A stretch of 64,000 bases of DNA, from positions 11,718,001 through 11,782,000 of the forward strand of contig JBHGNT010000002.1 of the NCBI GenBank assembly GCA_043228905.1, read 5' to 3'. The position numbers and the translations under genes were made by a program. Shown one piece after another: positions 14,056 through 46,300 of the stretch. Numbering within the stretch: the stretch's first letter is position 1; each line of letters begins with the position of its first letter. The notes beneath the pieces are model-generated. The model worked only from the letters and a program-made list of their open reading frames with translations, ran no database searches and was not told the DNA's origin. The DNA comes from Azolla caroliniana. Taxonomy: Eukaryota > Plantae > Polypodiophyta.

Positions 14056-16081
14056 TTTACATTATATAATAGTTGTCTTAGTGGTAAGGCAAACATCTTG
14101 TATCTTAGAGGTGCAAGGTTCAAACTTTGCTTGTACCCCTCTGTATGAACTCAAGTGTCACTAGGCCTTATGCTTATTTGCTAAGTGCATGTGTAATGTT
14201 GCACATCCTTGATTTATTCGTCTCACTCGGTTTCACACCGTAGCCGAAAATTGTCACAACATCCACCCTCACCAAACCTGCACATCCTCCGGTATGTGCC
14301 GAGAAAGGTGAAGAGGTGAGATCTTTGGCAACGGTGATCAACCGAGTTCCTCCGCATGCTCGTCTAACTTCATCTTCCATTTCGAGTATGCCCAATATTT
14401 TGAACCGAACCACCGTAGCCACCCAACCCAATCCACCATATCCGGTGCTCACACCTTCTTCCCCGGTCGGTTGTAGTAGATCTACCGAACGATGTCGTCG
14501 ATCCGACCACTCTTCCTTCGTCAACCACGCGTATCCTTTGATTGGACTCGTGGTCACTCCTTGAGCTCACCGTCTTCAACTGGGTGTTGTGGATCGTTCG
14601 TGTCGATCTCCGATTAGGCCGGGTTTGCCCTTGTCCGGATCGGTTTCTGCCGATCGCTTCTTGGCTCGGTTGGCCTTTGTCTGCATTCGCATTTCGCCAA
14701 GTCGGGCTCGACCGATTGATTCCGGCCTGGTCAGCCCCCTTTTGGATCGGGATCGTTCGATCAATTTCCGCTGAATCAGTGTCTTCCTCATCGCCCTTCC
14801 AGTCCTCCGCTTTTTCGTCAACACATTCTGTCTCTCCAGTCTCACGTTGGCGCACGTGCGCAACCGCCGAAGTCTCTAGAATAGATGTGGGGATATCCTT
14901 TCGTCCTCGATCTTCTTCCTCCTTTTGTTGGGCCTTCGTCTTCGCGTCACCACCTTCTGTCTCTCCGGTCTCACGTTGGCACACGGGCGCAACCGCCGAA
15001 GTCTTTGGAACAAGTGTGGAGAAAGTCTCGACATGGCTATCCGCCGTCGACTCGTCCATAGCCATCTCCAAGTCGATGTCGTTTGTCATGGCTACCTCCT
15101 CAATCACGTCAGACTCAAACACTTTATCTCCCTCGATCATGCAAGCTTTTCTCATGCTTGCACCTTCATCACCCGATGTTTCGTACACAATGCATGTTCC
15201 GAAACATTTATCCTCCCTCGAAGTGGCGTTCGCCGTGCTCGAGTCATCGGCCTCCTCCTTGGCCATTGTTTCTTTGTAAGACAAGAAGGTGACTTGTTTC
15301 GCACCTTCTCTCTCGGTACTGTCATACCGAACTTGAGCCTTTGTATCGACCACTTCATTAACCCACATTTGTTGGGAGGTCTCTTCTTCCTCGATCACCA
15401 TTCGCCTCGGTTTTGTCTCCCTTCTAAGCTTCATTTCTTTCGTTGGTGGCGCATTGCTACATCTCGTCCCTCTTCGATCATCCCTCATGGGTTGTCTTGT
15501 TGTCATCGATATTCTCACTCACCCCTTATCGTGTAGTCGACATACACTTTCCACTTTGCTCCAATCCTTGATGAGGCCATTTGCACCGTTATCTTCTTCG
15601 AGTTTGAGGCCAATGGCCATCCTTTCCATTCGATCGATTGACTTCACGAACATAAGGACCTTATCGAACCCCACCAATCGTTGTTTCTGCTCCGAGAGTT
15701 GAGAAAAACGATGCTCAAAGTCTACGCACCTTGGTGGGTCTTCGCCGATGTCACCCATTGGTCAAAATTGCGTCGATCTCGTTCCTTCAGTCTCTCATAG
15801 CCATATTCCTCCAATAGAGCCTTCTCAAAAGTCGCCCACGAATCATGAGCTTCTATAAGCTCTTTTACATCTTTGAAGATCGGTTGAGACACCACCCGAC
15901 AAAAGTGCTCTAGCCTCATAGCTTCGTCCACACCTCTTGAATTCATCTCCGCATTGTAGACTTTTAGAAAATTTTGGACTTCGGCGCCGTTGAAATAACT
16001 CACTCGCTTGACTACCCTCTCAATGGCTTGTTGGGCTTCATTTCATCTTTTCCCTTCTCTCAGAAACTCCATCATCCTTTT

Positions 16082-19000
16082 TGTAGAAAGTAGCGTGCGG
16101 AAGCAGGTATGAAGACAGAACAGAGGAAGGAAACACAGGTTCAATGGAGAGCTTGGGCTTACACGGTATACGCGGGAGAGACAGAGAGAGTAGACACAAA
16201 GAAAACTATATTCAATAATAATACTCAGTCTGTACATAAGACGTGCTCAGTGAGCACTTTTATACAAGTCCTAGAAGGATTGACCGAAGTACTGACAATA
16301 CTTCAATGCTCATCAAGAGCTCCTACACTAACTCCCAAATATATTCCTCACGGAATATCTTTCCTAACGACCTCCCGGTTTATGCACTCGGCCTAACCGA
16401 TTGGTCCCAACCGATCCGGTCCTCAGCTTCTTCAGCCGATCCGGCCGATGTTGAGCTTGTCTCTCAACACTCCCCCTCAAGCTCAATTCGAGGCTCTTCG
16501 GGATCCTCGGGCTCACGGCTCCGGTTCCTCCTGGCTTCACGCCTCGCTCACGCTCCTCGACCTGTTCGTCTCCGCATGCTTCGACCCTTCCGGTCGGCTT
16601 GTATGCTCATGCGGCCCTTATAAGCTCTTCTGTTGTTGCGGTGTCGACGCTTCTCCTGCTACCTTTTCTTCCGCTTGGGCCTCAGTTGATTCAGCGTATC
16701 TGAATCAAACATCCGAACCGACTCGGCTGCCTCCGATCGGTTTTCGCTCTCGTCCGAGTTGGCTGTCTCCAACTCGTCTTCGGTCTTCTCGCCCTCGATG
16801 GCGTCATCTCCCCTATGCGTGGTTGGCTTCAGCTCTCTCCTTCGGCTAGTCCCCTTCTGTTCGCTTCCGAACTTTTCCACGGGTCCGCCCTCGGCTTCTT
16901 CAACCGATCCGAAGTCGAACTTGTCAACCGACTCGGTGCCGCGGTCTCCGCTCCTTTCCTGTTGCCTTGCTTGGTCGTTCGGGACTGTTCTCCCCCTCAA
17001 GTTCGGCACGTCAAGGTGATGCAATCCGAGTGCACCTGAGAATTGCCGCAACTTGTCCAGACCAAGAGGCTTGGTGAAGATGTCGGCAGCCTACCGATCC
17101 GACGGAACGTACTGAAGTTCGACTTCACCGGAAAGGACACGCTCACGGACGAAATGGTAGTGCACCTCAATGTGCTTGGTCCGTGCGTGGAAGACGGGGT
17201 TCTTCGCGAGTTGGATGTTGTTGAGGTTGTCGCAGTAGATCGTCGTTGGATCGGACACCTCCTCTTGCAGGTCCTTAAGTAGCCGCTTCAACCATATGGC
17301 TTCGCATGTCGCGACAGCCGCTCCTCGGTACTCCGCTTCGGTGCTCGATAGTGCAACTATCGGCTGCTTCTTACTGCTCCACGCAATCGCGGCACTCCCG
17401 AGGGAGAACGTGTATCCAGACGTGGATCGGCGATCGGCAGCGTTGCCAGCCCAATCAGCATCGGTGTAGCCGACTAACTGCACGGCTGCACCGGTCCGAT
17501 ATAGCTGTCCTCGGTCCTTAGTGCCACTTACGTACCGTAGTACGCGTTGCGCACACTGAAGGTGCTCCTCGGTAGGTCGCGCCATGAACTGACTGATCAC
17601 TCCAACCGGATAACTGAGGTCGGGTCGGGTGAAGGTCAAGTATATGAGGCTTCCGACAATTTGTCGGAACCTCGTCGGGTCGCATACCTTTCCCGTATCG
17701 GGACGAAGCTTGACGGTTCTGTCCAGAGGAGTCGAGACGGTCTTATAGTCGGCCATCCCGAATTTGAAGCGCATACTCAGCACATAGTGACGTTGGTTGA
17801 TCAATATGCCTTCGGGGGTACGGATCACTTCGATCCCGAGGAAGTAATGAAGGTCCCCCAGATCCTTCATGTCGAACAATGCCGCAACCTAGAGCTTCAC
17901 GCGGTCGATTTCACCTAGGTCGGCGCCGGTGATGACCAAGTCATCAACATATAGTAAAATACTAACCGGTCCGAGTCGACCTTTCCGGATGAACAGGGAA
18001 GAGTCCGATTTTGACGTGACGAAGCCCATCCGACGCAGTTGTTGTGTGATCTTCGCGTTCCAGGCACGCGGGGCTTGCATCAGTCCGTAAAGGGACTTCT
18101 TCAGTCGGCATACTGCCGAGCAGTTCGTTCCGGAGTGAAATCCGGGGGGTTGTACCATGTACACTTGTTCCTCAAGGTCACCTTGTAGGAACGCATTCTT
18201 TACATCCATTTGATGTAAGTGCCACCCCTTGGCTACGGCTACTGCGAGCAAAACATGGACGGTCGTCATTTTTGCGACCGGCGCAAACGTCTCATCGTAG
18301 TCGATGCCGTGTTTCTGCGATAGCCCCTTGCCACTAGTCGAGCCTTGTACCGGTTGACCGAGCCATCGGTGTTGTACTTGACCTTGTACACCCACCTACA
18401 CCCGATCGGTTTTACCCCTTTTGGTGCGTCAACCAGGTCCCAGGTCTCGTTCTCTGCCAATGCGTGCATCTCTTCCTCCATCGCGGCATGCCAATTCGCG
18501 TCTTTAGCCGCTTCTGCATAGCTCTCCGGCTCACGCACTTCCACTACACGGGTCATGTACGCATAGTGATGCGCCATGTACTCGTTATATCCGAACCGCA
18601 AAACAAGATTCTTCTGGCGGGTAGATCGGCGTAATCTCACATCAGCCGATGTCGAGACCTTCTCGGTCGACGCGGACTTCATCTTTAAAGACCTATCACC
18701 GGTTCCCTCGGAGTCGGACTCGCGTCGGTCTGACTCGTTCCTTTCCGTGCCGGAATCCGACACCTTCTTCTTCCCTTTCTCTTTGCGCGTAAGCCGTCTC
18801 CTCGGCTTCCTGCGTGGGGAATGCACGGCCGAGTCTCCACTACTCGCCGGCTCTTCATCGAACTGGTCGTACCGACTCAGTCGTCCAATTGGTCCACTTA
18901 ACCGGAGTGAAATCGGACTCTCTTCGCGGGTCTCGATTTCGGGCTCATCCGAAGGCATCTCGGCCTCGCTGACCTCATCGTCAGAGCTCGGATTGGAGTC

Positions 19001-21749: not shown

Positions 21750-22276
21750 CTTTTTAACATTGCCTCCATGAGATATTCGCCATCCATCTTCGTCCTCCCC
21801 TGCTGCTCTTCACATCGGGTTCACCAAATGATGTCGCGAAGATTTGTGCGTGTGTGTGCTACTTGAGCGACCAATGGGGTCTTGGACTGGGGAGGACGTT
21901 CGCGGAATTATCGAAGAGATGACGATCAATGTAAGATTGGATGAAATTTGTTCATTTGAGAAGAAGAAAGATTGTACAGTTGAGAAGTAGAAAAATATGA
22001 AGCAGATAAAGACGAATATAATTATATTGATGATAGTGGTGTTGGTGATATCACATATTGAGCCCCCCTTTACACAAGCTCCACTAGGGTTTTTATAGCT
22101 CTCTTCATGCACAAAACCATGGGTTTAGAACCATGGTTTTGGGGACTCGGTTTTGCTTATGACATGCACAATCCATGGGTTTAGAACCATGGTTTTGTGC
22201 ACATGGTTTTCTATGGTTGTTTCGTCTATAATTCGTATATGAAAAGGAAATACATAAATTTATATTATATGATAGT

Positions 22277-22340
22277 TGTCCTAGTGGTAAGGCAAACATC
22301 TTGTATCTTAGAGGTGCAAGGTTCAAACCTTGCTTGCACC
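22277..22340 (+). promoter_or_regulatory. tRNA-like Pol III A-box/B-box cassette in the X LTR. Also at 14072-14140 (+), 28100-28170 (-) and 30973-31043 (-)
   Basis: TGTCCTAGTGGTAAGG-N27-GGTTCAAACC, with a T-arm-like hairpin GCAAGG/CCTTGC. Confidence 0.6.
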
Positions 22341-24278
22341 CCTCTGTATGAACTCAAGTGTCACTAGGCTTTAGGCTTATTTGCTAAGTGCATGTGTAAT
22401 GTTGCACATCCTTGGTTTATTCGTCTCACTCGGTTTCACACCGTAGTCGAAAATTGTCATGACAATGTGGTCCTCACTGGAGAAAAAATGGGAGTTGTCC
22501 CCAAAACGTGAGTGGGAGCAACCATTGAGACGGTCCTCACCGGAGTAGGCGGCCAAACAAATGGTGGAGCATTGGCTCGGAGACGGGTGGACGTAATACC
22601 TTGTGAGTGAAAATTGGAGGTGAAATTGATGGAGCGAGATCACCAATCCACAACTGGATTATGAGTTTCGAGCCATGATAACCCCAAGATGATAGGATGT
22701 CGAGGTGATGTGATGAGGTTAAAAGTGATTTCTTCCTGGTGGGCTCCTATGTGGAGACCCAAGGGAATTGTTGTATTTGTGATGGCACCAGAAGAGAGCG
22801 TTCGACCGTCGATCACTTCAACTGGAATCGGGACGGTTAATTGTTGCTTGGAATGTTGTGTTTCCGTGCAAACATGATGTCAATAAAGCACGATGTAGCC
22901 CCAGAATCCAACAAAGCTTTTGTCTTCAGAGTTGTAGAGCCAAACTGAAGAGTGATTGGAATCCTGAAACTTGTTGTCAAGGAAGTCGGTTGATTGGGCC
23001 CTTGACATAATTGTCGACTCTTGTGGTCCAGATGCACAGCCCCTACTGCAACTGGACATTGGAGTTTTCTTGTTGACCGAAAATGTCAACCCCATCCACA
23101 CGATGTGGTGTTTGACGGGGTCCCTTTTTTGGGCAAGAGCGGATCAAATGGTCAGGACCGCCACAATAGAGACATAAATTGTTGGCCCGTCGATGTTGTC
23201 GTTGCGCATTAGTCAATGGTCGATAGCAAATTCGATCGATCTCCATTGGCGAGCTAGAATTTGTGGCAGGAGTTGAAGATGAAGTGGAGGATGACATGGG
23301 AGGTGGTGTTGTCAACAATGGTAGGTGACTTCGCGTGGCGGCTGCCAAGGTGGATGGATCCGGTGAGGACGTTCCTCTGGCCGGAACTCAAAGACATGGT
23401 TATCGCAACGCACAGCTTGGGAAATAGCCTCATTCAAAGATGTGGGCTCAAGAAAATTAAGTAAAAGATTTTTTATATCACCTCGTAATCCTCGACGGAA
23501 TTGATCAAGGAGGGCTGATGAAATTCGGATGCATAGATTGATGTTGCACGATCGCCTTGTTGTAACGCATATAGTTTGTTGAGTGCGGCTCGTCGTTTGT
23601 CGGTCTCACCAAAAGTTGCCTCAAATTTAGTAAGAAATGCTTGGAAGTCATTCAAGAGAGATGAAGAGAGAGGTCTCCACTAGAGGGGCAAACCAAGCTT
23701 GTGCTTGTCCTGTCAGCAACGTGTTGATGAGCCTAACTTGTCAAAAGTCATCAGAATAGTGTCGGGGCTGAAGATGAATAATAAGGCGGATTTGGTTGAT
23801 GAAACCTCTTAGCCGTGACCTTGTTCCATCGAATTTGTTTGGCAAGCTGACATTGAGTTCTATAGCATAAGGGTCAACAATTGGGTGAGGTATAACCGGT
23901 GTGGTTGCCTGAAGTTCTTGAACAGAGTTTCGCAAGTTCACATTTTCATGTTGGAGTTGTTGCACGACCACCAAAATTTGCTCAAGATTACTAGATGATT
24001 CTGACATGATAGTGTTGAGAAAGAAGGAAAGAAGGAAAGAAGGAGATCAATCTCTCACGGATGAACAATTGGGGGTAAAGAGATGGGGAAGTTGATGAGA
24101 TAGGGAGATCGAGAAGTTGATGACAATGAGTAAAAATATCTATTCCATGACTGGTGTTGATCTCCTTGATGTTAACAAGGGAGATCAACCCTTTTTATAC
24201 ATGTAGTGATGCATGATAAGCATGCTCATGCCAAGTCTTACATACTATAATATCAAGCATACTAATTCTTGCATGCCA

Positions 24279-24403
24279 AGTCTTACATATTGAGTCTTAC
24301 ATACTGGGTCTTACATATTGAGTCTTACATACTGAGTCTTAGATATTGGGTCTTACATATTGGGTCTTACATATTGGGTCTTACATACTAGGTCTTACAT
24401 ACC
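24279..24403. repeat. 14-bp tandem repeat (RGTCTTACATAYTG, about 9 copies) in the element A LTR
   Basis: Directly visible in the sequence. Confidence 0.9.
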
Positions 24404-27400: not shown

Positions 27401-28625
27401 TCGGTAGCATAGCATATGTGCATGTACCGGATGAGAAGCGGAAGAAGCTAGATCCGAAGTCGAAGAAATGCATCCTAGTCGGCTACTTGCATGAGCAGAA
27501 GGGGTATAAGTGTTATAACCCCCAAACTAAGTAGGTCCGAGTAAGCCGAGATGTTGAGTTTGATGAGACGGCATCATGGTACGCCTTACCAACTCCAACT
27601 CCCGACGAAGACCCGATTCCGGAAGATGACGCTAGTGAGCCCGAGGAGGTCCAGGTAGAAGATGAAGACTTTGGCACTCTAGAAGAGAGTCTGATCTCAT
27701 TCCAGCTCAATGGACCGAATGAGTTGCTGAGTCGAGATGACCAATCGGATGAAGAACCGGCAAGTAGTGGAGACTCTCTTGTGCAGTCCCCGCGCAAGGA
27801 ACCGAGGAGAAGGTTCACGCGCAAAGAGAATGGGAAGAAGAAGATGTCGGAATACGAAATCCGCAACGTTGAGTCGCATCAGAACGACTCCGACTCCGGG
27901 AAGGATGAAGGCGGATCTTCGGGAATGAAGTTCAAACCGGCCAAGAAGGGCCCCAAACCGGGTGATGACAAGTTACGCTGTCGTGACGATTTTCGGCTAC
28001 GGTGTGAAACCGAGTGAGACGAATAAACCAAGGATGTGCAACATTGCACATGCACTTAGCAAATAAACCTAGCCTAGTGGCACTTGAGTTCATGCAGAGG
28101 GGTGCAAGCAAGGATTGAACCTTGCACCTCTAAGATACAAGATAATTTCCTTACCACTAGGACAACTATCATATAGTGTAGATTTTATGTATTTCCTTTT
28201 CATATACAAATTATAGACGAAACAACCATAGAAAACCATGTGCACAAAACCATGGTTTTAAACCCATGGTTTGTGCATGACATAAGCAAAACCGTGTGCA
28301 CAAAACCATGGTTTTAGCCCATGGTTTTGTGCATGTCACGAGCATGGAAAGACCTATAAAAGCCTCTAGTTGGGCTTGTGTAAGGGGGGCTCAATATGTG
28401 ATATCACCAACACCATTATCATCAATATAATTATATTTGTCTTTATCTTCTTCATTATTTTCTACTTCTCAAGTGTACAAGCTTTCTTCTTCTCAAGTGA
28501 ACAAATTCCGTCTAATCTTACATTGATCGTCATCTCTTCGATAATTCCGCGAACATCCTCCCCAGTCCAAGACCCCGGTGGTCGCTCGAGTAGCACACGC
28601 ACGCGCGAATCTTCGCGACATCATT

Positions 28626-28643
28626 TGGTGAACCCGACGTGAA
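28626..28643 (+). promoter_or_regulatory. Primer-binding site complementary to the tRNA-Trp 3' end
   Basis: The reverse complement TTCACGTCGGGTTCACCA matches the plant cytosolic tRNA-Trp 3' end as I recall it. The same site occurs at 21809-21826 and 63652-63669. Confidence 0.85.
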
Positions 28644-28664
28644 GACCAGCAGGGGAGGACGAAG

Positions 28665-30290
28665 ATGGATGGCGAATATCTCATGGAGGCAATGTCAAGA
28701 AGGATGATGGAGTTTCTGAGAGAAGGGAAAAGAAGAAATGAAGCCCAACAAGCCGTCGACAAGGTAGTCGAATGAATGAGCTATTTCAACGGCGCCGAAG
28801 TCCAAAGTTTCCTAAAAGTCTACAATGCGGAGATGGATTCAAGAGGTGTGGACAAAGATATGAGGCTAGAGTACTTTTGTCGGGTGGTGTCTCAACCGAT
28901 CTTCAAAGATGTAAAAGAGCTTCTAGAAGCTCATGATTCGTGGGCGACTTTCGAGAAGGCTCTATTGGAGGAATATGGCTATGAGAGACTGAAGGGACGA
29001 GATCGACGCAACTTTGACCAATGGGTGACATCAGCGAAGACCCACCAAGGTGCGACACAAGCATTCGTAGACTTCGAGCATCATTTTTCTCAATTTTCGG
29101 AGCGGGAACAAAGATTGGTGGGGGTCGATAAGGTCCTTATGTTCGTGAAGTCAATCGATCGAATGGAAAGGATGGCGATCGGCCTCAAACTCGAAGAAGA
29201 TGATGGTGCAAATGGCCTCATCGAGGATTGGAGCAAAGTGGAAAGTGTATGCCGACTACATGATAAGGGGCAAGCGAGAATATCGATGACAACAAGACGG
29301 CCCATGAGGGACGATCGAAGAGGGACGAGATGCAACAACGCACCACCAACAAAAGAAATGAAGCTTAGAAGGGAGACAAAACCGAGGCGAATGGTGATCG
29401 AGGAAGAAGAGACCTCCCAACAAATGTGGGTTAATGAAGTGGCCGATACAAAGGCTCTGGTTCGGTATGACGGTACCGAGAGAGAAGGTGTGAAACAAGT
29501 CACCTTCTTGTCTTACAAAGAAACGACGGCGAAGGAGGAGGCCGATGACTCGAGGACGGCGAACGCCACTTCGAGGGAGGATAAATGTTTCGGAACACGC
29601 ATTGTGTACGAAACATCGGGTGATGACGGCGCAAGCATGAGAAAAGCTTGCATGATCGAGGGAGAAAAAGTGTTTGAGTCTGAAGAGATTGAGGAGGTAG
29701 CCATGACAAACGACATCGAGTCGGAGGTGGCTATGGATGAGTCGACGACGGATAGCCATGTCGACACTTTCTTCACGCTTGTTCCAGAGACTTCGGCGGT
29801 TGCGCCCATGTGCCAACGTGAGACCGGAGAGACGGAAGGTGGTGACGGGAAGACGAAGGCCCAACACAAGGAGGATGAAGATCGAGGAAGAAAGGATATC
29901 CCCACACCTATTCTAGAGACTTTGGCGGTTGTGCACGTGCGCCAACGTGAGACCGGAGAGACAGAATGTGTGGACAAAAAAGAGGACGACCGGAAGGGCG
30001 ATGAAGAAGACAAGGTAAATGTAAATGAACGAAGGGATTCCTTCACACCGGTTCCGGAGACTTCGGCAGTCGAGACCGTGTGTCGGCATAAGACCAAAGA
30101 TAAAGGAGGTGGCGAAGAGGAGACAATATGGCTCGCGGCGAGCATACATGGAGGGAAGGATATGGCCGACGTGGAGGCCAAGGATGAAGCTACGGTTGAG
30201 TTCGATGGAGAGGTTGCATGCGGGAAGGAAGGAAGAGTCGAGAACCGGTTGAACCGGAAGACGATCCGGCCGGGATTCCGACCCGAATGA
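28665..30290 (+). CDS. Gag-like protein with a long acidic, repetitive C-terminal tail; one in-frame TGA at 28773-28775
   Basis: The 504-aa ORF from 28776 extends 37 codons upstream to an ATG at 28665 across a TGA that is CGA in X1. Its N-terminal part is similar to the Gag of element J. Confidence 0.8.
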
Positions 30291-33200
30291 AGGAAGATCC
30301 ACATGGGAGCCGATCGACCGGGGCCGACCCGGCCGAAACCTGATTCGGCGAAAATCGATCGGACGATTCTGATCCAAAAGGGGGCCAACCCAGCCAGAAT
30401 CAATCGGTCGAGCCCGACTCGAGGAAATGTGAATGCAGACGAAGGCCAACCAAGCCAAGAAGCGATCGGTGGAGACCGATCCGGACAAGGGCAAACCCGG
30501 CCTAATCGGAGATCGACACGAACGATCTACAATACCTAGTTGAAGACGGTGAGCGTGAGGAGTGGCCAGGAGTCCAATCGAAGGACACGCGCGGTGGACG
30601 AAGGAAGAGCGGTCGTATCGACGACATCGTTCGGTAGATCTACTACAACCGATCGGGGAAGAAGGTGTGAGCGCCGGATATGGTGGATCGGGTGGCTACG
30701 GTGGTTCGGTTGGAAAGATTGCGCATACTCGAAGTGGAAGACGAAGTCGACAAGCGTGTAGAGGAACTCGGTTGATCACCGTTGCCAAAGATCTCACCTC
30801 TTCACCTTTCTCGGCACATACCGGAGGATGTGCGGGTTTGGTGGGGGTGGATGTCGTGACGATTTTCGGCTACGGTGTGAAACCGAGTGAGACGAATAAA
30901 CCAAGGATGTGCAACATTGCACATGCACTTAGCAAATAAACCTAGCCTAGTGGCACTTGAGTTCATGCAGAGGGGTGCAAGCAAGGATTGAACCTTGCAC
31001 CTCTAAGATACAAGATAATTGCCTTACCACTAGGACAACTATCATATAGTGTAGATTTTATGTATTTCCTTTTCATATACAAATTATAGACGAAACAACC
31101 ATAGAAAACCATGTGCACAAAACCATGGTTTTAAACCCATGGTTTGTGCATGACATAAGCAAAACCGTGTGCACAAAACCATGGTTTTAGCCCATGGTTT
31201 TGTGCATGTCACGAGCATGGAAAGACCTATAAAAGCCTCTAGTTGGGCTTGTGTAAGGGGGGCTCAATATGTGATATCACCAACACCATTATCATCAATA
31301 TAATTATATTTGTCTTTATCTTCTTCATTATTTTCTACTTCTCAAGTGTACAAGCTTTCTTCTTCTCAAGTGAACAAATTCCGTCTAATCTTACATTGAT
31401 CGTCATCTCTTCGATAATTCCGCGAACATCCTCCCCAGTCCAAGACCCCGGTGGTCGCTCGAGTAGCACACGCACGCGCGAATCTTCGCGACAACGCCGG
31501 TCTTCCTGCCAGAAGAACCCCATTACGTGGTACCAATACAATGAGTACATGGCGCATCACTATGCGTACATGACCAAATTGGCGGAAGTGCGTGAGCCGG
31601 AGAGCTACGCAAAAGCGGCAAATGACACAAATTGGTGTGCCGCTATGGAAGAAGAAATGCGGGCACTCGATGCCAACGACACATGGGACCTTGTCGACCC
31701 TCCCCGACATTGTAAACCGATAGGTTGCAAATGGGTGTACAAGGTAAAGTACAAGGCCGACGGTTCGGTTAACCAGTACAAGGCCCGGTTAGTGGCGAAG
31801 GGATATGCACAGACCCACGGAATTGACTACGACCAGACCTTCGCTCCAGTAGCGAAGATGACGACGGTTCACATGGTTCTGGCGGTTGCTACGGCAAGGG
31901 GATGGCATCTTCACCAAATGGAAGTGAAGAATGTGTTTCTTCAAGGTGACCTTGAAGAATGGGTCTATATGATCTAACCCCCCAGTTTTCAATCGGAGAT
32001 GAACAAGTCGGCGGTGTGCCGGCTTAAGAAGTCGCTTTACGGTCTGAAACAAGCCCCCCGAGCTTGGAATGCGAAGATCACGCACCGGTTGTGTAAGATG
32101 GGGTTTGTGACCTCTAAATTCGACTCCTCGTTGTTCATCCAGCAAGGTCCGGATGGTCCAGTTTGCATCTTACTTTATGTAGATGATTTAGTCATCACCG
32201 GACTTGGCCTCATTGAAATCGGCCGACTGAAGTCCCAACTATTAAACACATTTGAAATGAAGGACATGGGGGACCTTCATTATTTTCTTGGGATCGAGGT
32301 GATCCGAACCACCGATGGCATATTGCTCTCACAACGACACTACGTGTTGAATATGTTGTACAAGTTCCGATTGCCGGAATGCCAACCTGTCTACACACCC
32401 TTGGACCGGAACCAGAAGCTTTGTCCCAACTCCTGACCGGCCTGCGATGAGAAATGATTCCGAGAAATTGTCGGAAGCCTCATATACCTGACAATCACTC
32501 AACCCGACACTAGTTACCCAGTCAGAGTGATCAGCCAGTTCATGTAGAAGCCGACCATCGAGCACCTTCAATGCGCACACCGGATACTCTGGTATGTATG
32601 CAGCACGAAGGATCAGGGACTATTATACCGGCATGGTATAACTGAAGAGCTAGTCAGATACACAAATGTTGATTGGGCTGGTGATGCATCGTATCGCCGA
32701 TACACCTCCGGTTACATGTTTTCTCTTGGTAGCGTGGTTGCTGCATGGAGTAGCGAAAAGCAGCCACCAGTGGCTCTATCGAGCATTGAGGTTGAGTACA
32801 GGGGTGCTACCAATGCCACCTGTGAAGCCATCTGGCTTCAGCAACTACTGCATTACCTCCAAATCGAGGTACCGACCCCGATCCTGATCTACTGTGACAA
32901 CATGAACAACATTCAGCTCGCCAAGAACCCTGCATTCCATGCTCGGACAAAGCACATAGAAGTGCATTATCACTTTGTTCATGAGTGGGTCCTGAGCGGG
33001 GGATTGAACTTCGGTATGTTCACATAGATCAGCAGGTTACCAACATCTTCGCCAAGCCGCTAGGATCAAACAAGTTGCGGCATTTTTCGGAGATGCTCGG
33101 TATTCAGCATCTCGTTGTGCCACACTTGAGGGGGAGAAAAGGAAAGGGAACAGATGGCATTGGACAAGGATCCACAGAGGAAGAAAGAACTAACAAAGGG

Positions 33201-36200
33201 GGAGATGAAGGGAAAAAGGAAGCCGAGTCGACGAAGGAAGTCGGCACATCGGAACAAGTCGGAATAAGCAACAGCAGCGGTAAAGTCAAGAAAGATAGAG
33301 CCGACCGGAAAGAGAAGGCCAAGACTCGGACATGGTCTGATATGCTAAAGGGCCTGAAACTGGAAGACGAGTTGGAGAACACCGACTCGGACAAGAGCCG
33401 GAACGAATCAAAGGAACCCGATTCGGTTCAAGATTCGAAGAAGCCGGATCAGCTAAAGGCTAAACGGACACGAACGCAGCGGAAGTCGATGCCAACATGA
33501 AGGAATCGATGGGCCGACAAGTGCTAGAGTCATAGCAGCAAGGGAGCTTAAATGGGCCTATTGAGCAGACAAGCCAACCGAGGAGGTCGAGGTGCGGAGA
33601 ACCAAAAGGGTCGCGGCAAACAAGACCGGACTGGACGAGGAGCGCGACCAAGGCGGAGCAACGCCAGAAGGAGCCGGGTAGAAGAACTGACTGCCGCAGA
33701 CACTAACACCACGATCCGACCTCAAGTTGAACTTGAGGGGGAGTGCTGAGCAAGCAAGCTCAACCAGATCCGGATCGGCATCCAGAAGGATGAGCCGGAT
33801 CAGTATCCAAAAACAATCGGCCGGATCGGGGAGACAGATCGGAGAGCCGGATTCGAGTGGGAACCAGAAGCCTAGTAGTAGCCTAGACTACTAGGTAATC
33901 TTTGTCTCGTAGTTAGTGTCAATCGTACGTAGGAATATTGAAGTACCTGTCAGAACTTCCGTCAGTCCTTTATGGACTTGTATAAATAGTGTTGTTTAGC
34001 ACGTTGTATGTACAGAGTTACAAAGTATTTTCATTTTTTGAATCTACGCTTACGTTCTGCTCTCTCTGTCTCTCCCACGTATACTCTTTGTATACTAAAC
34101 TTCTCCATTAAACCTTCATCTTATTCTCTATTGCTAACCGGCTAAGCCGGTTCTATCTAACGCTTCCACACGTTTGCATTCACAGACTCTAATATCAAGA
34201 CGCCTCTAGTATGGCGGAGCACATGAACGCCTTCCAGGGGCTGATAAACCAAACAACTAGCTGACAAGGTAGTCATGTTGCTGCTACTCTCCCTCTCGTA
34301 TAGTTGGAAGACGCAAGTTGTCACTTTAGGCAATGTCGGGCCAGAAGGTAAACACCTATCCCTAACAAGGGTAAAATCAAGCTTGCTGGATGAAGAAGCT
34401 CGTCGGAAGGATCGGGAGTCCAGAACTGATCTGAAGGCCTTGGTTACGGAAGACCACAATAACTGGGAAAGAGGCCAGAATCAGAGTCTCCAAAACCGGG
34501 ACAAATCAAGGACGAGGTTGAACTCAAGGGGGAGGTCAACTTGCTTTTATTGCGGAAAGTCGGGGCACTTCAAGAAGAATTGCCAACATTTCTAGAAGGA
34601 GAAAGGAACCGACAATGCTGACTTGAAGAAGGGTTCGGACCAGAGGAGTTCGGATCAGAAAGGAACATCCGCAATCGCGACAAGTGAAGAAGAATTGTTG
34701 CTCATCACTGAGGAAAATGATTTGCCCCTTGCCAGCAACGAGACGACATGGGTGGTCGACTCTGGAGCGTCGTTCCATCTAACTGCCGACCGGAAATGTT
34801 TCTCATCCTATAGAGCCAGAGATCACGGTTGTGTGCGGATGGGGAATGAAGGTGCATGCCGAATTGTTGGTATAGGAGATGTGTGGTTGACAACGTCAAC
34901 CGGGTGCAAGTTGTTGTTGAAAGATGTCTAACACGTTCCGGAGGTTTGGTTTAACTTGATATCAGTCGGACGGTTGGATGATGTAGGCTACACAGGTAGC
35001 ATCCGAAACGGAGTCATGAAGTTCAGCAAAGGAAGCCTGGTCGTGGCTCGAGCCTAGAAGATCAACATATTGTACCTAACACATGCCCGGATATGCAGGG
35101 AAGAAGTGAACGTGGCATCCGACACTGCCGGTGAGTTGTGGCTCTGATGACAACGACCATATGTGATAAATAGGTCACCCTTAGCGCCCTTGGACGGAGA
35201 CACACCACAGAGAGTATGGACCGGTAAAGACATGTCTTACCGGCATCTGAAGGTGTTTGGTTGTCTTGCCTATGTACATGTAGCAAAGGACAAGAGAGTG
35301 AAATTGGATCCGAAGTTTCGTCCATGCATATTCCTTGGATACAACGATGATGAGTTTGGCTACCGAGTGTGGGACTTGGTTGACAAGAAGTTTTTCAAGA
35401 GTCGAGACATAGTCTTCATGGAAGATAAGACCATTGTCGACTGGGAATCGGAGAAGAAGATAGTGGACTCTGGGTCGATCGACAAAGATCGGTTCGAAGA
35501 TGCTAGGATATATCCGGTAGGAAGCCGAATGTCAGACGAAGACCATGATGAACCGGCCGGATTCGGACAAAGAACCAAATCGACCAAAGAAGAAGAATCG
35601 GACACCGAAACCGGACAAGACCCGAATCGGATTCAGATGAAGAACAGACAGAGGAGCTTATGGTCAAAAACCAAGGATGGAGATACCCTCTGAGAGAGAG
35701 AAGGCCCCCCGAAAATTTCCAGATGCAGAGCATGTCTTATTGACTGATGAGGGGGAGCCGGAAAGCTTCGAAGAAGCAAAGAAAGGCACCCACAACCGAA
35801 AGTGGTTGAGTTCCATGCAAGATGAGATGGATTCCCTGCATGGTGTCAGGAATAGTACTAAAGCAGAGATGGAATTAGTACTAAAGAAGAGCAGTACTAT
35901 TAGTACTAAGAGGACAGGACTACGTAAGACTCCCAAGAGAGAGAGAAAGAGAGAAGCGAAAAGAGAGATAGCGAGTATGAGAGAGAGAGAAGGATGATGA
36001 CAGCAGCTCTTATATTATATGAAAGATAAGTACAAATCGGCTAAGAGGCTTAAGACTGGTGTTGAACCAATTTGGTTCAACATAATGCCTAGTGCCTTCT
36101 TTTATAGTGTTGTCAGGACTAATCCTAAAACTTCTAGAATGTTCCAGAGAAATCTGGAATATACATTACTTTCTTATAATAAAACATAAGTGAAAATAAT

Positions 36201-36220
36201 ATCCTATGAATTATAATAGA

Positions 36221-36283
36221 TGGTGTGATGGTTAAGAGCTCGACCCATATACCATAAGGTTATGGGTTCGAGTCTTGCCATAT
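36221..36283 (+). promoter_or_regulatory. tRNA-like A/B-box cassette at the U3 end of the element E LTR; also at 42337-42399
   Basis: TGGTGTGATGGTTAAG-N28-GGTTCGAGTC. Confidence 0.6.
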
Positions 36284-37109
36284 CATGACACTATCTCCCC
36301 CTTAAAGACGACAAGTGGAACGAGTCGGCGCTGATTGCGGACCGGGTTTGTCCGGATACTTTCGGTGGAAATCAGCAAGCAAATCCTGAGCATTGGCAAC
36401 ATGCTCGACGGGTTCCCAAGTGCGTTCGCTCGGACTATAACCAAGCCAATCGACCAAATAATAAAGTTTGTTGCGAATAAGTTTTGAATCGAGGATGGCA
36501 GCAACTTCATACTCCGGGCCGACGTCCAACTCCAGCGGGGGTGGCGGTGGTGTAACACGATCGGGAATGGTGTTTGCTTTATAAGGTTCAAGAAGAGAAC
36601 AATGGAAAACTGGATGTATTTGAAGCTGCGGAGGGAGATCGAGGCGAAATGTGACATCATTAACCTTACCCGTAATACGGAAAGGACCGAGTCGTCGATA
36701 ATCCAACTTGTCGCACGGTCGAGTAGTCTTGAATGTGACGACGTAAGAGCCATACTCGATCTCCGATGGCAAAAGAGGAGGGAAGCCGATGACGATCCGC
36801 GTAAGTCTTCTGTGTCTGTTGAGCATGACGAAGATGAGTCGAGAGATCTGTCTGGATCTTGGGTAGTCTCTCCAAATAATCCCCGGCACGAGGATTGGTA
36901 GGTAACTCCGGGGTGTCGATCACCAACCAGTAAGGATGAGAACCAGTATAAGCGTAAAATGGGGAGACTCGAGTCGAGGAGTGAACAACATTATTATACG
37001 CAAACTCCGCAAAGTGGAGAATCTCGGCCCAATCGTCCTGTTGATAACTCAGGAAACACCTGAGATATTGCTCCAGCGTTTGGTTTGTTTGTTCCGCCTG
37101 CCCATTGGT

Positions 37110-38996: not shown

Positions 38997-41011
38997 TCCG
39001 CGGTAATCAACAACGAGACGAAGTGAGCCATCTTTCTTCTTGACACCATTAACTCGGCCGGAGATTTCGAATGACGGATGAACCCGCTAGCCAAGTTCTC
39101 CTCTATGTAGGCTCGAAGGACTTCTAACTCGGTGGATGACAAGTTGTAAATTGGTCCCCATGGTGGCTCGGTTCCTGGTTGTAAATCGATGGGACAGTCA
39201 TAGGGACGGTGATGAGGAAAGGTACCGGCTTTTACCTTGTCAAATACATCGACATAAGGATGATATTTTGCCGGAAGTTGTACTGAGGGGTCCTTCTTAA
39301 TAGTGCTGGAAGGATGTACTGATATTGCAAATAGGAACATTGCCTCCTTGTGTCCTTCTTCGCGTAATTGATGGAGTGAAATGGTCGAAACTCGGTGAGT
39401 AGATTCTTGGGGTGGTCGATATTAGACTTCTCTTGTTCTCCAATCTATGGCTGGATTATGTAATTCAAACCAAGGTAATCCTAGGACAATGGGTTGCTCT
39501 GGACTACTAATTATATTAAATGATATTACACACACAAAACTACCTAGGACAACTTGAATGGGTTCTGATTCTTCTACAATATTCCCGGAAGCAATGGGAC
39601 GACCATCAATGACTACTACAGATGCAGGACAAGGAAGTTTTCTTAGGGATATCTGAGAAGCTTGGGCAAAATTTCAATCCATGAAACAGGAATTAGCTCC
39701 GGAATCTAAAAGTGCTAGGACGGGTACTGGGAGAGTACTTTTAGTACTAACAATGACTTGGGCTAGGAACACATTGCTAACTTGCTTGGAAGGAATGGAA
39801 CCACTAATGGGTTGTACAGATCTAGGGCTGTTGTCCAACCAAACGGCTCCTATTTTGGCTGGACTCAATCGTTTAACTCTTCATCTAATTGACTCAGGAT
39901 TTCAAATTTGTTTGAGATACTTGGGCTATTAGTACTATGAATACTATCTGACACTCTATTAGTACTATTAATACTATCAGACACTCCGAAGGGAAGAATT
40001 GACTCGGGTTTAGTACAGGCGACGATTTGATTTACCTGTCTTCTTGGCCTATGGGGACAATTGATGGCGATATGCCCTGGTCCACCGCAATAAAGACATA
40101 ATCGATTGGCACGTCGTCGTTGCTTTTCTTCTTCCGATAACGGGTTGCGTCGACGCATGGTATCGATCTCCATCAGTGTCGAAGTATTTGCTTGAGGTAT
40201 GTCTCGTGCAAACGGTTTAGCCGCGACTGCGGCGTAAGTGGGCTCTGGCCTAGAGCGTGGTATCTGTAATTGACGTTCCAAACGCCGTTCGAAGAGGCGG
40301 TTGTCACATCGGACCGCTCAACTGATTGCCTCCGTAAGCGACTTTGGTTCTTCAGGGAAAGTTAGAAGTAGATCTTTGACATCGTTTCGCAGGCCATAGC
40401 GAAACTGCTCCATTAGTGCTTGATCATCCCAGGGTATATCTGAAGCGAGTAGGCAGAAATCCGCTGTCGTGCCTATCGGCTCCGGATCGTTGCGTGAGTC
40501 GGGTGGGAACCACAGAGGTCTTGGACTAGGAGGAAGAAGTTCGTGAGATAGAGATTAATTATGAGTAAATAGCAAAGAGAAAGATAAGAAACTCGTGAAT
40601 CACACGAGTATACTATATTAATTGGTACTTAGGGTGTTAAGAGAGAAGTAGATGTATAAATCGTGAATCCCACGAATAATTTTTGTATTGATTCATACTT
40701 AATCCAAATAATCAACAACCCTTTATATATTTCTCTCCTCCTTATATAAGGAAGGAAGAGCTAAGCATGGCTTCATGCTTTTTTTTACAAAAAGTGTTCA
40801 TGTCCACTAAATGTACATGTGATGCTTTTTTATTTCCTAAGTATAGGGCTCATGCACGCTAGATGTGCATGAGTTATTTTTAGTGTCTCGTGTTTTTTTT
40901 TCTTTTCTTTTTCATATATTAAAAAAATACACGATTTACCTTTTAATAAAGGTATGCATAAATAAAGGTCTTATACGTATTAAATCTATATTTAACACAC
41001 TTAAGATAAGT

Positions 41012-41075
41012 TAATGTAATGGTAAGGTTGGGGTTTGTCAACGTGGAGGTGCAGAGTTCGAATCACGCCCTGCGC
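41012..41075 (+). promoter_or_regulatory. tRNA-like A/B-box cassette in the solo LTR
   Basis: TAATGTAATGGTAAGG-N27-AGTTCGAATC. Confidence 0.55.
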
Positions 41076-41130
41076 AGTAGTGAGTATTTCCTTTGTTTTT
41101 TACATTTATGTCTCTTTATCCGGCTCTTCC

Positions 41131-41245
41131 TTGCCGGTATGCCGTTTTCTTCCTTGCCGGTATGCCGTTTTCCTCCTTGCCGGTCTGCCGTTTTCCTACT
41201 TGCCGGTATGCCGTTTTCCTCCTTGCCGGTATGCCGTTTTCTTTC
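41131..41245. repeat. 23-bp tandem repeat, 5 copies (TTGCCGGTATGCCGTTTTCCTCC)
   Basis: Directly visible inside the solo LTR. Confidence 0.92.
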
Positions 41246-44200
41246 GGTTCTCACCGAGCACTCCATTCTCTATCCGGAGGGACAAAAATATAATTTCCGC
41301 ATAGTGTGCAACCTACACTACGACACCGCAGTGTAGGTAGAGGCTGGACGATTGCCTTGACGCAATCGCCGGATCTTGTTGATTGTCGTCCTGATGCTGT
41401 CGGTGTCTCCAAAGCAGGCTTTAAACTCACTAATAAAATCTTCAAAGTTATTAAGCAAGGGCGATTGTTTTTCTAGAAGCGGGGCAAACCATGCTAAGGT
41501 TGAGCCGCTAAGCAACGTGCCTATTAAGCCGACTCGGGATGCATCAGTGGGATATCGGGAAGGATGCATTTGGAGGACTAATCGTACCTGATTAAGGAAT
41601 CCCCTGAATTGCGATCGCGTTCCATCAAATTTCACAGGAAGTCCAATCTTCGGCTCTTTATGAAATCCTTGGGGACTTGATCCTTGTTGTTGCAATGCCG
41701 CTTCGAGTTGTTGCACCCGTAATGCTAACTCCCCATGTTGTTTCTGCGTTTGTTGTTTTTCTAGAGCGATTTGTTGCAAATCCCCTATCAGCCGTTGGTT
41801 TTCTTGTTCCAAGGCAACAAATTTTTCTTTTAAGCACTGTAGCTCGGAGAAAACGGATTGATATTCTTGGGCGTTAACAATAGCCATAGTATAGGGAAAA
41901 GGGTAGGAGGATGAGGGAGAACGACAAGTAGGTTGGAGGACTGGGAAATCGGTTCAAACTGTCAAGAATAGTACTAAAGCAAAGATGGAATTAGTACTAA
42001 AGAAGAGCAGTACTATTAGTACTAAGAGGACGGGACTACGTAAGACTCCCGAGAGAGAGAGAAAGAGAGAAGCGAAAAGAGAGATAGCGAGAATGAGAGA
42101 GAGAGAAGGATGATGACAGCAGCTCTTATATTATATGAAAGTTAAGTACAAATCGGCTAAGAGGCTTAAGACTGGTGTTGAACCAATTTGGTTCAACATA
42201 ATGCTTAGTGCCTTCTTTTATAGTGTTGTCAGGAGTAATCTTGAAACTTCTAGAATGTTCCAGAGAAATCTGGAATATACATTACTTTCTTATAATAAAA
42301 TATAAATGAAAATAATATCTTATGAATTACAATAGATGGTGTGATGGTTAAGAGCTCGACCCATATACCATAAGGTTATGGGTTCGAGTCTTGCCATATC
42401 ATGACACATAGATCTGATGTTGGTACAAATGGGGGTCCAACCCTCACATATCTTCGTATGACCATGCAAAAACATCCCGGAATTCTTTGAGTAGCTCCAC
42501 CATTGCCGTTTTCTATTCCTATGGCATTTCCTTGCCACTTTTGCTGGTCTCGACGCCTCTCATATCCTGAGGTCGACTTCTTCCAGATTCGATGCATTTA
42601 TTCTTTGGGATACTGCCATTTCCCTCTCCAGTGATTCCTGTGCCTGTCGTAGTTCCCGCACTGCCTCCCTATCCGGCTCATCCAATTCGTCCTCCTGGTG
42701 CATAACGTACGGCGTGACGGCTTCAACAACATCTACTTCAAATAACGACACAATCTTGGGGTGTTGCTCTAGATATCGGTCGACCACGTCATCTGACAAT
42801 CCATCCAGCATGTTAATACTCTCCGCGTATAGCGGTGTTAGCTACTTAGTTGTACCATCCCATTGTTCTGTCGACACCCACACCTTAGTTTTCCCTCGCC
42901 GGAAGGTAATTACGTTCTTTTGCCAGTTTTGCTTAATATGCACTGTTCGAATACATGGTCATCATAATAACAAGGGATAAGCCCCCAATGCGTTAGGTTG
43001 CAGTACCACTGCGGATATTCGGAACGCGTGCCCTCCGATTGTAATGTCAAGGTCCTGGATGAGTCTGGTTCACCGGACCGAACTGGTGTCTGCCCGATTC
43101 CCATTCGTTGATGCCTAGTGTATCACATGTCCGCTTGCTTATTACATTTACATGGGAACCTCCGTCAATAATGGTTCCTGGTATCTCGCTTCCTTTTATT
43201 ATCACCATGATTGTCATACTACTTGTGTCCACTACGGTTGGTCTATCCTCTTGATTGGAAAATAATGTTGGTGTCGACTCCGGATTCTATGGTGTTATTG
43301 CCGATTTAAGGCCTGCTGTAAATTGAGGAACCAATTGTAATAGGTGGCTGAGAGGTAGCATAATTTGGCATTATTGCAACGCTTGCCAGGTTGAGTCGTC
43401 ATCTGTGGTCTCGAGTGGTTCCTCTGGAAACTTGGTCTGCTCTTTTACTTTGGCCATGTTCCGTTCATTGGCCTTCTGTATCCACTTGGTAGCCTGCTTT
43501 CGGATTGCCTCCTAGGTCTCCCACTCTACAGCTTTCCCTTTCGATCGGGTGGTGACTTGTTGTACATCCATGACTTCTGCGGTCACCATGTTCATTGCCG
43601 GTTGTTTCTCATTAGACTTGACCGGGCACTAGCTACTTTTCGGATATTGCTTGATTCCCCTTATTTTGAGCTACCAGGCTGGATATCGGGATTCATCCGG
43701 TTGGTATCTTCCGGCCTTCATTGCTCTGGTTGTGGGACGACCGCGTTTATATCCAGCTCCCAACGGTATTCCTGGGCATGTTCACGATGCTCATCTCGGC
43801 GAAAAATCCCCCTATGATTCTGATTGCATCGGTGATTACGGTATCCCTGGCGTTCCGGTTTTCATCTGTCCTGGTCTATGTAGGCTCGCCGTTCTAGGTA
43901 CCTTCTATCATCCCTTCGCCGATCATAATTCAGGGAGTAATCACACTCGTAGCGATCCCGATCGTAGTTGTCTCTTCGTCTGTCCTCATACCGATCACCA
44001 CATTCTGGTCAATATCATTCATCCCTCCATATATGTTCCTTGTTCGGTCCTTGCTCACTTCGGAGCTCAATATGTCGGACTGGTGCCACTTGCCGATTTA
44101 ACGAATTGTACTCACACTAGTCTATAGTGTGTGACCGGGAGTGGCACAATATGCACTGAGTTTGCATTGTGCATTCTAATGTGGAGTGTCCGGGGTTGAG

Positions 44201-45138: not shown

Positions 45139-45840
45139 GATGCCTTTGGCTAGGGTTTGCAGTATCAATTTTGTGTCGCACAAACTGCTCAGATTGCTGC
45201 CTTCGTTGGAATGTCGTTGGTTTTGCAACCGGACCATCTACTCTGTGACCTGTTGAATCTCGTTGGGAAAAGACCGATCCTATCGAATCTCCTCGGCCGC
45301 CTGCTGGTAGGTCTCCCGACTCGGTAGTCTCTCGACTAGTCTTCTCACTCATTCGGTCATTCATCGGCCTAGTCATCCATTCGTCGTTCGCTACACTTTA
45401 TAGGAATTGTGGTCACCAAAATAGTGTTGTAGGTTTTAGGGTTAGGGTAAAGGATGATAATGATAAAAATGGAAACCCTTGATGCCTTTGGCTAGGGTTT
45501 TCAGTATCAATTTTGTGTCGCGCAAACTGCTTAAACTACTGCCTTTCAATTTTGTGTCGTTTCAATGTTGTTGGTTTTACAACTGGACTGTCTCCTCCGC
45601 GACCTGTTGAATCTCTCTGGGAAAAGACCGATCCTATCGGATCTCCTCGGCCGCCTGCTAGTAGGCATCCCGCCTCGGAAGTCTCTCAACTAGTCTTCTC
45701 GCTCGTTCGGTGACTAGGTCATTCGTCGGTTTAGTCAACCATTCCCCGTCGTTCGCTACATTTTACAGGAATCGTGGTCGCCAAAACAGTGTTGTAGGTT
45801 TTAGGGTTAGGGTAAAGGATGATAAGGATAAAGATGGAAA
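45139..45840. repeat. Tandem duplication of about 340-360 bp covering the LTR end, PBS and leader of element H
   Basis: Units start GATGCCTTTGGCTAGGGTTT at 45139 and 45481. Confidence 0.85.
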
Positions 45841-46038
45841 TAGGGTTAACGATGATGATGATAATGAATGTTGATGGGGATGGAGATGATGAGGATTGCG
45901 GGATTGATGGGCGAAGATGTTGATGTGCATTGAGAAGCATTGTAGGGTGGGGGGTGGTGCCTAGAATGGCTCCACCCCCCTCCCCAGGGGGGTTCAAAGT
46001 AAGGAGAGAGAGAGAGAGAGTTGAGAGAGTTGCCCAGA

Positions 46039-46108
46039 TGGATATAGCTCACTTGGTAAGGTTGCCCAATGGAGACCAGGTGGTCATGGGTTCAACCCCT
46101 ACATTCCA
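46039..46108 (+). promoter_or_regulatory. tRNA-like A/B-box cassette in the element H LTR
   Basis: TAGCTCACTTGGTAAGG-N27-GGTTCAACCCC. Confidence 0.6.
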
Positions 46109-46300
46109 CAGTGGCATCTAGTGAATTTTGAGATATATAAGAAGTATATAATAGAGAGGTGAGGAGGTTGGGTTTCGAACCCACAACGCAATGCTTGTAG
46201 TGCTAACAACTTACTTTATCATAAAAAATCAAAATAAAAAACAGAGAGATTGAGAGAGAAATTTTCATTCTTCATTCATTCCCCATAAGGGATTAAATAG

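Follow-up and report, generated by a model that had tools for sequence, protein, structure and literature searches.

The question raised by this locus is why the long terminal repeats (LTRs) of Gypsy retrotransposons should hold, on the strand antisense to the element, the paired A and B boxes of a tRNA-type RNA polymerase III (Pol III) promoter. The locus is a stretch of 64,000 nucleotides from Azolla caroliniana (G000:C2:11718001-11782000; hereafter the window) within a 523-Mb eukaryotic assembly, and it contains nested copia and gypsy LTR elements. An initial annotation had described such box pairs, here called cassettes, in four gypsy families (E, X, a solo LTR and H). All four motif pairs are present, and in E and X the cassette lies in both LTRs and antisense to the element, as described. 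The count of families did not survive: X and the solo LTR form one lineage, and the H case is the insertion of a short interspersed element (SINE). Judged by their sequences, the cassettes belong to two unrelated Gypsy lineages plus a further family, F, and not to four independent lineages. The core idea, that type-2 boxes are maintained antisense in gypsy LTRs and replicate with the element, gained support from 20 chromovirus families and from a Phygy-like subgroup. A plausible reading, which we hold to be evenly balanced, is that the conserved antisense cassette would act as a TFIIIC/Pol III site that keeps the LTR promoter open, that is, as a portable barrier of the tRNA-gene (tDNA) type against heterochromatin in the flank.

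A strict pattern for the A and B pair, derived from the observed motifs themselves, matched seven times in the window and not once in any of 60 dinucleotide shuffles, a control that the initial annotation had called for. Over the whole genome, an X/solo-type pattern gave 1379 exact matches against one for the reversed control, and a pattern for the B side of the E type gave 3041 against none for its control; taken together, the matches to these two narrow patterns would put the number of putative TFIIIC sites in the genome in the thousands. A more general pattern for type-2 promoters matched 24 times in 664 kb (the window plus 600 kb fetched blind) against none on the reversed sequence. The cassette was rejected as a functional tRNA: over the window ARAGORN reported no tRNA and Rfam gave no tRNA match, and the stems of a four-stem cloverleaf are missing. 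Comparisons of close copies, which were 92-100% identical, were too alike to gauge conservation, and contigs from four runs, compared at 80% likeness, yielded related LTRs only, a match that carries no information on strand or starts.

Conservation of the cassette in the E clade

E is a 6.5-kb gag-pol-chromo element on the minus strand, with matches to reverse transcriptase (RT), RNase H, integrase, Chromo and Ty3 capsid, and its chromodomain is of type I with an aromatic cage. The LTRs (447-bp 3' LTR at 35844-36290 and 5' LTR at 41960-42406) are 96.9% identical, with the target site duplication (TSD) CATGG/CATAG. In the 5' LTR a TATA box lies at about LTR position 186, and the predicted RNA polymerase II (Pol II) start about 33 nucleotides on. 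The element has no tRNA primer binding site (PBS); a self-priming PBS (41946-41959, minus strand) offers 12 nucleotides complementary to sequence about 33 nucleotides after the TATA box, with one G-U pair in this copy. In the E clade this 12-nucleotide PBS covaries with its complement in five sequence variants (L326-L372), a pattern from which Tf1-type self-priming in this chromovirus clade is clear. The self-priming partner lies after the TATA box, which shows that the cassette is part of U3 and falls outside the promoter used by Pol II. Self-priming, the aromatic-cage chromodomain and the lack of a tRNA PBS are traits of the Tcn1 clade, and E is described here as Tcn1-like.

The cassette of the 3' LTR occupies the tip of U3 (36221-36274, plus strand), antisense to E, with its B box ending 16 nucleotides from the LTR end; it scored 27.8, against 8.5 for the best shuffle. 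That of the 5' LTR (42337-42390, plus strand) points outward into the flank. An internal inverted repeat of the E-type cassette (36241-36270) varies on both arms between subfamilies, unlike the clade overall.

In a set of 30 loci chosen solely for a match to the B side, 29 were E-type LTR tips. The blind sample yielded more self-priming chromovirus families with the cassette at the same tip and with unrelated spacers, and no cassette in intact copia elements, in H or in a Met-PBS chromovirus. As a motif-independent sample, 78 relatives were fetched from metagenome contigs by their RT-integrase protein; 36 of them were without the chromodomain end, and the 37 with enough U3, together with four families from the genome itself, gave 28 distinct tips, locus L346 having been excluded for a wrong LTR start. 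The scoring matrix was built from 12 host tRNA entries, nine of them from organelle-like clusters. On the antisense strand 21 of the 22 in-group tips beat all 40 shuffles, and the sense strand reached at most 10.8; L337 held a B-like box only. None of six more distant outgroup families scored. The carriers form an RT clade of 22 rows (support 98/95), with the full cassette in 21, and their RT-integrase proteins are 61-94% identical to E. In these protein-selected tips the A-B spacing stayed within 34-36 nucleotides, in keeping with the tRNA-like spacing noted before, whereas the distance to the LTR end ranged from 11 to 59.

Conservation by column was measured in 20 families, with L337, L364 and the six outgroup rows excluded. 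In tRNA numbering, T8 (95%), T16 (100%), G18 and G19 (95%), G53-T54-T55 (100%), C56 (90%) and A58 (100%) were kept, A14 and C61 stood at 80% and 75%, and positions left free by the consensus varied (mean identity 0.38 at positions 10-13; 40% at position 59). The motif AGGT at positions 44-47, which lies outside the scoring matrix, was kept at 90-100%. The 5' spacer was at background (identity 0.29 against 0.28), and pairing in the stems (0.24-0.36 against 0.28 expected) was nowhere above chance. The initial annotation had described the region between the boxes as unrelated among families and without a clear arm. That region is in part related, since the AGGT of the variable loop is common to X, solo and E. 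Its expectation that the boxes would be more conserved than the spacer was borne out in the 20 chromovirus families, in which the spacer is unalignable.

These columns bear on the possibility that the cassette is a passenger without function, left by the long-past insertion of a SINE or tRNA gene in an ancestral LTR and not yet decayed. SINEs do enter LTRs in this genome (L092, L105), many active families are without a cassette, SINE insertion has been proposed as the source of such LTR parts (Kojima, PMC10886601), and for H the passenger account holds at copy level, as described below. A passenger would be expected to decay evenly, yet the box bases are 90-100% kept over a background spacer across families 61-94% identical to E, and the spacing is fixed while the distance to the LTR end is free. 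By this comparison the passenger account is largely refuted for the E clade, and taken over all carriers we regard it as distinctly improbable.

Alternatively, the cassette could be a working Pol III promoter whose RNA is what matters, as self-limiting antisense or small RNA and, occasionally, as the founder of a SINE. The 3' LTR would then be read antisense across the polypurine tract and the chromodomain/integrase end, and the 5' LTR into the flank. The promoter is complete, with A and B boxes at tRNA spacing and AT-rich sequence upstream, as in the plant tRNA genes described in PMC11700998, although the upstream AT content (83% against 58% in the cassette) is a weak point, U3 being AT-rich generally. 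In E the first run of four T (T4) lies 268 nucleotides from the predicted start, within the chromodomain coding region. The defined oligo(T) terminator of a type-2 gene is missing, however: across 17 families the first T4 falls at 72-1087 nucleotides with no shared position, T4 lies inside the LTR in 5 of 20 families, and outside the boxes neither fold nor sequence of an RNA is conserved. A Pol III RNA of fixed length was rejected for want of a shared T4 position, and the broader proposal that the RNA matters seems to us rather unlikely.

Boxes and AGGT kept at fixed spacing, a spacer at background, lost stems and no fixed terminator together argue that the cassette is a DNA site of the TFIIIC type under selection and neither a tRNA nor a relic that drifts neutrally. 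On these alignments the cassette is selected as DNA sequence and not as RNA structure, and selection on a Pol III-type promoter site is very probable.

X and the solo LTR, a Phygy-like lineage

X is a 3.5-kb gag-only, non-autonomous element, and the solo LTR comes from an autonomous 7.4-kb gag-pol family. The 5' LTR of X copy 1 (21832-22459, minus strand) is followed by a tRNA-Trp PBS and carries a cassette at 22277-22329 (plus strand), with an A box at 22277-22287, AGGT at 22312-22315 and a B box at 22320-22329. The 3' LTR of this copy is broken (pieces 14058-14258 and 907-1326); its cassette (14074-14126, plus strand) has an altered final B-box base. X copy 2 (27979-31493, plus strand) has LTRs at 27979-28620 and 30852-31493 that are 99.8% identical, the TSD ACGC, a Trp PBS and a gag-like open reading frame (28776-30290), and its cassettes were found by pattern search at 28112-28164 and 30985-31037 (minus strand). 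The solo LTR (861 bp; 40465-41325, minus strand; family locus L155) is inserted in the gag of E with the 4-bp TSD CCGC; the cassette in its U3 (41012-41064, plus strand) is antisense to the element, with the first T4 run at 41096.

The PBS of X corresponds to the 3' terminus of tRNA-Trp(CCA) genes of the host. X and the solo family both have a Trp PBS, share 4-bp NCGN TSDs and have remotely homologous LTRs, in which, when X is compared with the solo-type LTR L206, no part of U3 other than the cassette can be aligned (E-value 0.001-0.003). By these sequence features X and solo are one Phygy-like lineage, of which a subgroup carries the cassette; the tRNA-Trp PBS, the 4-bp NCGN TSD and the lack of a chromodomain, all seen in X and solo, are Phygy traits. 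The cassette was rejected as a general trait of Trp-PBS elements, being found in two of the first 30 among 3857 Trp-PBS 5' LTRs. Because the de novo LTR finder demanded 5-bp TSDs, it missed the 4-bp-TSD Phygy-like elements. The subgroup, sampled by way of its PBS, was defined by its LTR end (1195 matches, 30 examined): 24 of the 30 LTRs held the cassette, and the other six were either broken before the site (four) or had local deletions (two).

Conservation was measured in 15 Phygy-like representatives chosen to be less than about 90% identical. Mean pairwise identity was 0.70 in the A box, 0.49 in the 5' spacer, 0.73 in the variable loop plus T stem and 0.88 in the B box, against 0.35-0.58 upstream and 0.53 over the whole LTR; a single 1-nucleotide indel occurred in 14 rows. 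The B box thus again stood above the spacer, but by these values conservation is block-like and less box-specific than in E. A quick gag tree of Phygy-like elements gave two state changes over 31 rows, and the RT tree had four rows only, every one a carrier.

Several other features of this lineage were noted. In X LTRs there is another A box, on the sense strand and 34 nucleotides before the near-palindromic B box, which makes a mirror cassette (scores 20-25) at 28069-28121 (plus strand) in the window and in the X-type LTRs L001, L012, L018, L035 and L038; it is weak in an X-related family and was not seen in solo-type LTRs. Gag-only Phygy-like elements (L156, L158, L159, L177 and X of the window) have varied LTR types, namely solo-type, X-type and cassette-less, which suggests LTR swapping among them. 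Apart from this lineage, the genome has tandem nuclear tRNA gene arrays (Lys/Asn, Ile, Arg and Trp) at L061-L069, at L078-L080, at C8:17.80-17.82 Mb and at C16:4.99-5.11 Mb.

The cassette may also be considered at the RNA level, where it is complementary to the D and T arms of host tRNAs and could serve as the 3' half of a Ty3-like bipartite PBS or as a target of tRNA fragments. This would account for the strand, the U3 position and the contiguous block 44-58, and just such a segment is described in U3 of Ty3, where it pairs with the primer's T and D arms (PMC5371799). The E clade self-primes, as its PBS covariation indicates, so a tRNA primer is unneeded there. In the Phygy-like elements D-arm identity was 0.66 to Trp, 0.69 to Gln and 0.62 to Arg, and at positions 44-52 it was 0.47 to Trp and 0.64 to Asn; a cassette matching the primer tRNA was rejected, Trp being no closer than other host tRNAs. 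With T8 isolated and position 59 free, the pattern looks more like a consensus bound by protein than like one shaped by base pairing, and we consider an RNA-level site the most improbable of the explanations raised here.

The breaks in these LTRs bear on another proposal, that the cassette is a cue for integration or nuclear positioning through TFIIIB/TFIIIC, acting as a decoy, a landing pad or a tether that clusters copies, and not as a barrier. Pol III genes are described as targets of Ty1, Ty3 and Tj1, and the X1 3' LTR is broken about 10 nucleotides before the predicted cassette start. That break is a single case made by organelle-like DNA, and the four interrupted Phygy-like LTRs break 85-560 nucleotides from the cassette, none of them just upstream. 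A clustering of insertions just upstream of the cassette was rejected on these four, and the cue itself appears very unlikely. The organelle-like DNA that breaks the X1 LTR (1326-2020 and 12900-14057) holds copia insertions, a group II intron domain V match (12923-13007) and, by eye, plastid-like gene fragments.

The SINE in the H LTR and family F

The H LTR (45790-52425, minus strand; pieces 45790-46340 and 52206-52425) is split by a copia element and has no cassette of its own. The box pair seen there belongs to an (AG)n-targeted SINE (46032-46242, plus strand) with an A-rich tail and a degenerate TSD of about 15 nucleotides. Head 1 of this SINE has its A box at 46045 and its B box at 46089-46098 (plus strand); head 2 is inverted, with a B box at 46172-46181 (minus strand) and the A box deleted in the window copy. 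A search with the H region retrieved a module of about 210 bp in unrelated flanks (3541 first-look candidates, 40 scored). At 19 other loci (L092-L110) it starts after an (AG)n tract, ends in an A tail and holds two convergent A/B heads; it is 209-216 bp long and copies are sometimes in tandem. Unique TSDs of 14-16 nucleotides were obtained for 5 of the 19; the remaining copies either are embedded in pure AG tracts or yielded no TSD.

When the query was limited to those parts of the H LTR that flank the module, 24 loci were found, with the SINE in the window copy and the other 23 of 23 empty, and H without the SINE has no cassette. L092 is another H LTR with a SINE at the same tract. The H case thus shows a tRNA-type head, an A tail, a TSD of the variable 7-20-nucleotide kind, dispersed copies in unrelated flanks and empty orthologous sites. 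As an LTR-borne feature the H cassette was rejected, being a copy-specific SINE with TSD and tail, an outcome that the initial annotation had itself allowed for. Two further observations concern H and this SINE. In H elements (e.g. L140, L145, L148-L150; C2:11843321) a tRNA-3'-end-like sequence replaces the polypurine tract before the 3' LTR, and at L287 (C2:11802200-11803300) a short tandem array with units like SINE head 2 lies in an insertion within a copia RT gene.

Family F is a chromovirus (C2:11832613; 1440 candidates) whose cassette agrees with that of the E clade in its place at the LTR tip and in its strand. Its cassette is 85% identical to SINE head 1 over 88 nucleotides, and this homology begins about where a Pol III transcript would, a point in favour of the proposal that the RNA matters. 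F groups with cassette-less families (SH-like approximate likelihood ratio test 96, better copies), and a grouping of all carriers together was rejected (approximately unbiased test, p 0.022, quick tree); the cassette would then either have been gained twice or be older and have been lost in some families. In 19 copies of F two stems, and only these, keep pairing, the acceptor stem (91 of 133, G-U included) and the T stem (50 of 76), so that the capture seems to be a younger one. The AGGT typical of the clade and an exact tRNA register are retained in F but not in the SINE, so the direction leans towards LTR-to-SINE.

A candidate barrier and its known relatives

In X/solo, the E clade and family F the cassette is on the same strand and the same side of U3, and its distance to the TATA box is 115 (E), about 190 (X) and about 265 nucleotides (solo), a range of 115-270 bp. 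The DNA itself shows where the cassette lies and which way it points, that it is copied into both LTRs, that particular bases are conserved while cloverleaf pairing is lost, and how the cassette is distributed over the clade. The steps of the barrier model are given here in order of falling certainty, from capture through TFIIIC binding and TFIIIB loading to the barrier effect. A tRNA gene or the head of a tRNA-derived SINE would have been captured into U3, once in the E clade and separately in the Phygy-like subgroup, with a third capture possible in family F. TFIIIC would bind the module of A box, AGGT and B box, and TFIIIB would load on the AT-rich stretch facing the Pol II TATA box. By analogy with fission yeast, in which tDNA barriers need TFIIIC and Pol III (PMC2040200), the site would give a tDNA-type barrier or an open-chromatin effect. 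Starting from an outward-facing cassette, Pol III would leave the Pol II promoter behind and not run through it.

Several points weigh against this model. The cassette is absent from most LTR families here (28 of the 30 Trp-PBS 5' LTRs chosen irrespective of subgroup; within the window, V, Z, H and the five copia LTRs; a Met-PBS chromovirus). Because the fission-yeast barrier is reported to work in either orientation (PMC2040200), the fixed strand needs a second reason, the simplest being that Pol III is thereby kept from transcribing into the promoter of Pol II. The A- and B-box columns of the E clade are partly circular, since they were anchored on the best matrix match; the AGGT, spacer, strand and outgroup results are free of this circularity. 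The metagenome families may derive from close kin of the source organism. In the Phygy-like subgroup the 15 nucleotides past the B box (0.89) are as conserved as the B box, the A box ranks no higher than the 74th percentile among LTR windows, a subfamily (L209, L223, L231) reads TGA where the A box otherwise has TGG, and CpG sites in the B box have not decayed preferentially to the tolerated form (4 CA and 3 TG of 24).

The barrier model bears on the way in which retrotransposons landing in heterochromatin retain a working promoter; the type-I chromodomain, which E carries, has been linked to binding of methylated H3K9 (PMC6317226). If the model is true, every new insertion would import its own tDNA-type boundary into heterochromatin. 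The presence of this 55-bp module in one chromovirus clade and its absence from sister groups offer a natural comparison. A bolder and more doubtful version is that at least two, possibly three, autonomous Gypsy lineages convergently built an outward TFIIIC/Pol III barrier in the outer U3, and that read-out from an LTR founded a SINE, reversing the usual SINE-to-LTR direction.

Boxes of this kind in LTRs have precedents. In the sections of Kojima (2024, PMC10886601) drawn on here, Helenus and Ajax are miniature retrotransposons with terminal repeats (TRIMs) and with tRNA- or 5S-derived LTR boxes, the strand of the boxes being unstated in the text; Helenus, or TRIMp3, comprises non-coding TRIMs of 311-1263 bp, and the boxes are proposed to transcribe the element. 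Autonomous partners, it is argued there, have to be transcribed by Pol II and will probably not have LTR parts of this sort in common with the TRIMs, and 'not a few' Repbase LTRs are said to hold tRNA-like parts, which were analysed only if under 1000 bp. The novelty suggested by the initial annotation, which did not cite Helenus, is narrower: tRNA-type LTR boxes had been described in these TRIMs, and our literature searches, with Repbase, subscription journals and the supplements and figures of Kojima (which may hold cases) outside their scope, turned up no account of antisense tRNA-type boxes in autonomous Gypsy LTRs. The present cassettes would extend tRNA-box LTRs from miniature non-autonomous to autonomous elements, with a geometry that precludes an own-promoter role.

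Like Helenus, our elements have a tRNA-derived stretch with A and B boxes in both LTRs, conservation centred on these boxes and no functional tRNA; for Helenus a SINE2 insertion into the LTR and several independent origins have been proposed, and the capture route is probably shared. Unlike Helenus, the carriers here are autonomous Gypsy elements of 5-7.4 kb (plus one of 3.5 kb that has gag only), equipped with a TATA box for Pol II and an outward cassette. They exceed the TRIM size of about 1.3 kb, and the cassette, antisense and upstream of the TATA box and the self-priming start, would not transcribe the element; X alone has a sense A box, but T runs come within the LTR. Lacking both the TRIM size and a self-promoter, they are not Helenus. 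Cassandra TRIMs likewise have Pol III promoter elements in both LTRs, kept by selection, but theirs is a type-1 (5S) promoter that transcribes the non-autonomous element itself (PMC10886601).

By described features, E resembles the Tcn1 clade in its type-I chromodomain, self-priming and LTR of about 450 bp (Neumann 2019, PMC6317226; Novikova 2010, PMC2864245), and X/solo resemble Phygy in the tRNA-Trp PBS and 4-bp NCGN TSD (PMC6317226). Elements of these kinds would point to a plant without seeds. The cited parts of these two papers do not mention polymerase III, and Novikova (2010) found for SM-Tcn1 no evidence of self-priming such as is clear in the E clade. The bipartite PBS of Ty3 shares with the cassette a tRNA-complementary U3 sequence in the genomic RNA; it matches the primer tRNA, whereas the cassette follows the general consensus of the boxes and is present in elements that prime themselves (PMC5371799). 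The closest functional parallel would be the tDNA-Ala barrier at cen1 of Schizosaccharomyces pombe, A/B-box DNA at the edge of an active domain beside heterochromatin. There the barriers are true tRNA genes at fixed loci, tested and orientation-independent, whereas here a decayed mobile copy is held in one orientation, with a function inferred from its sequence (PMC2040200).

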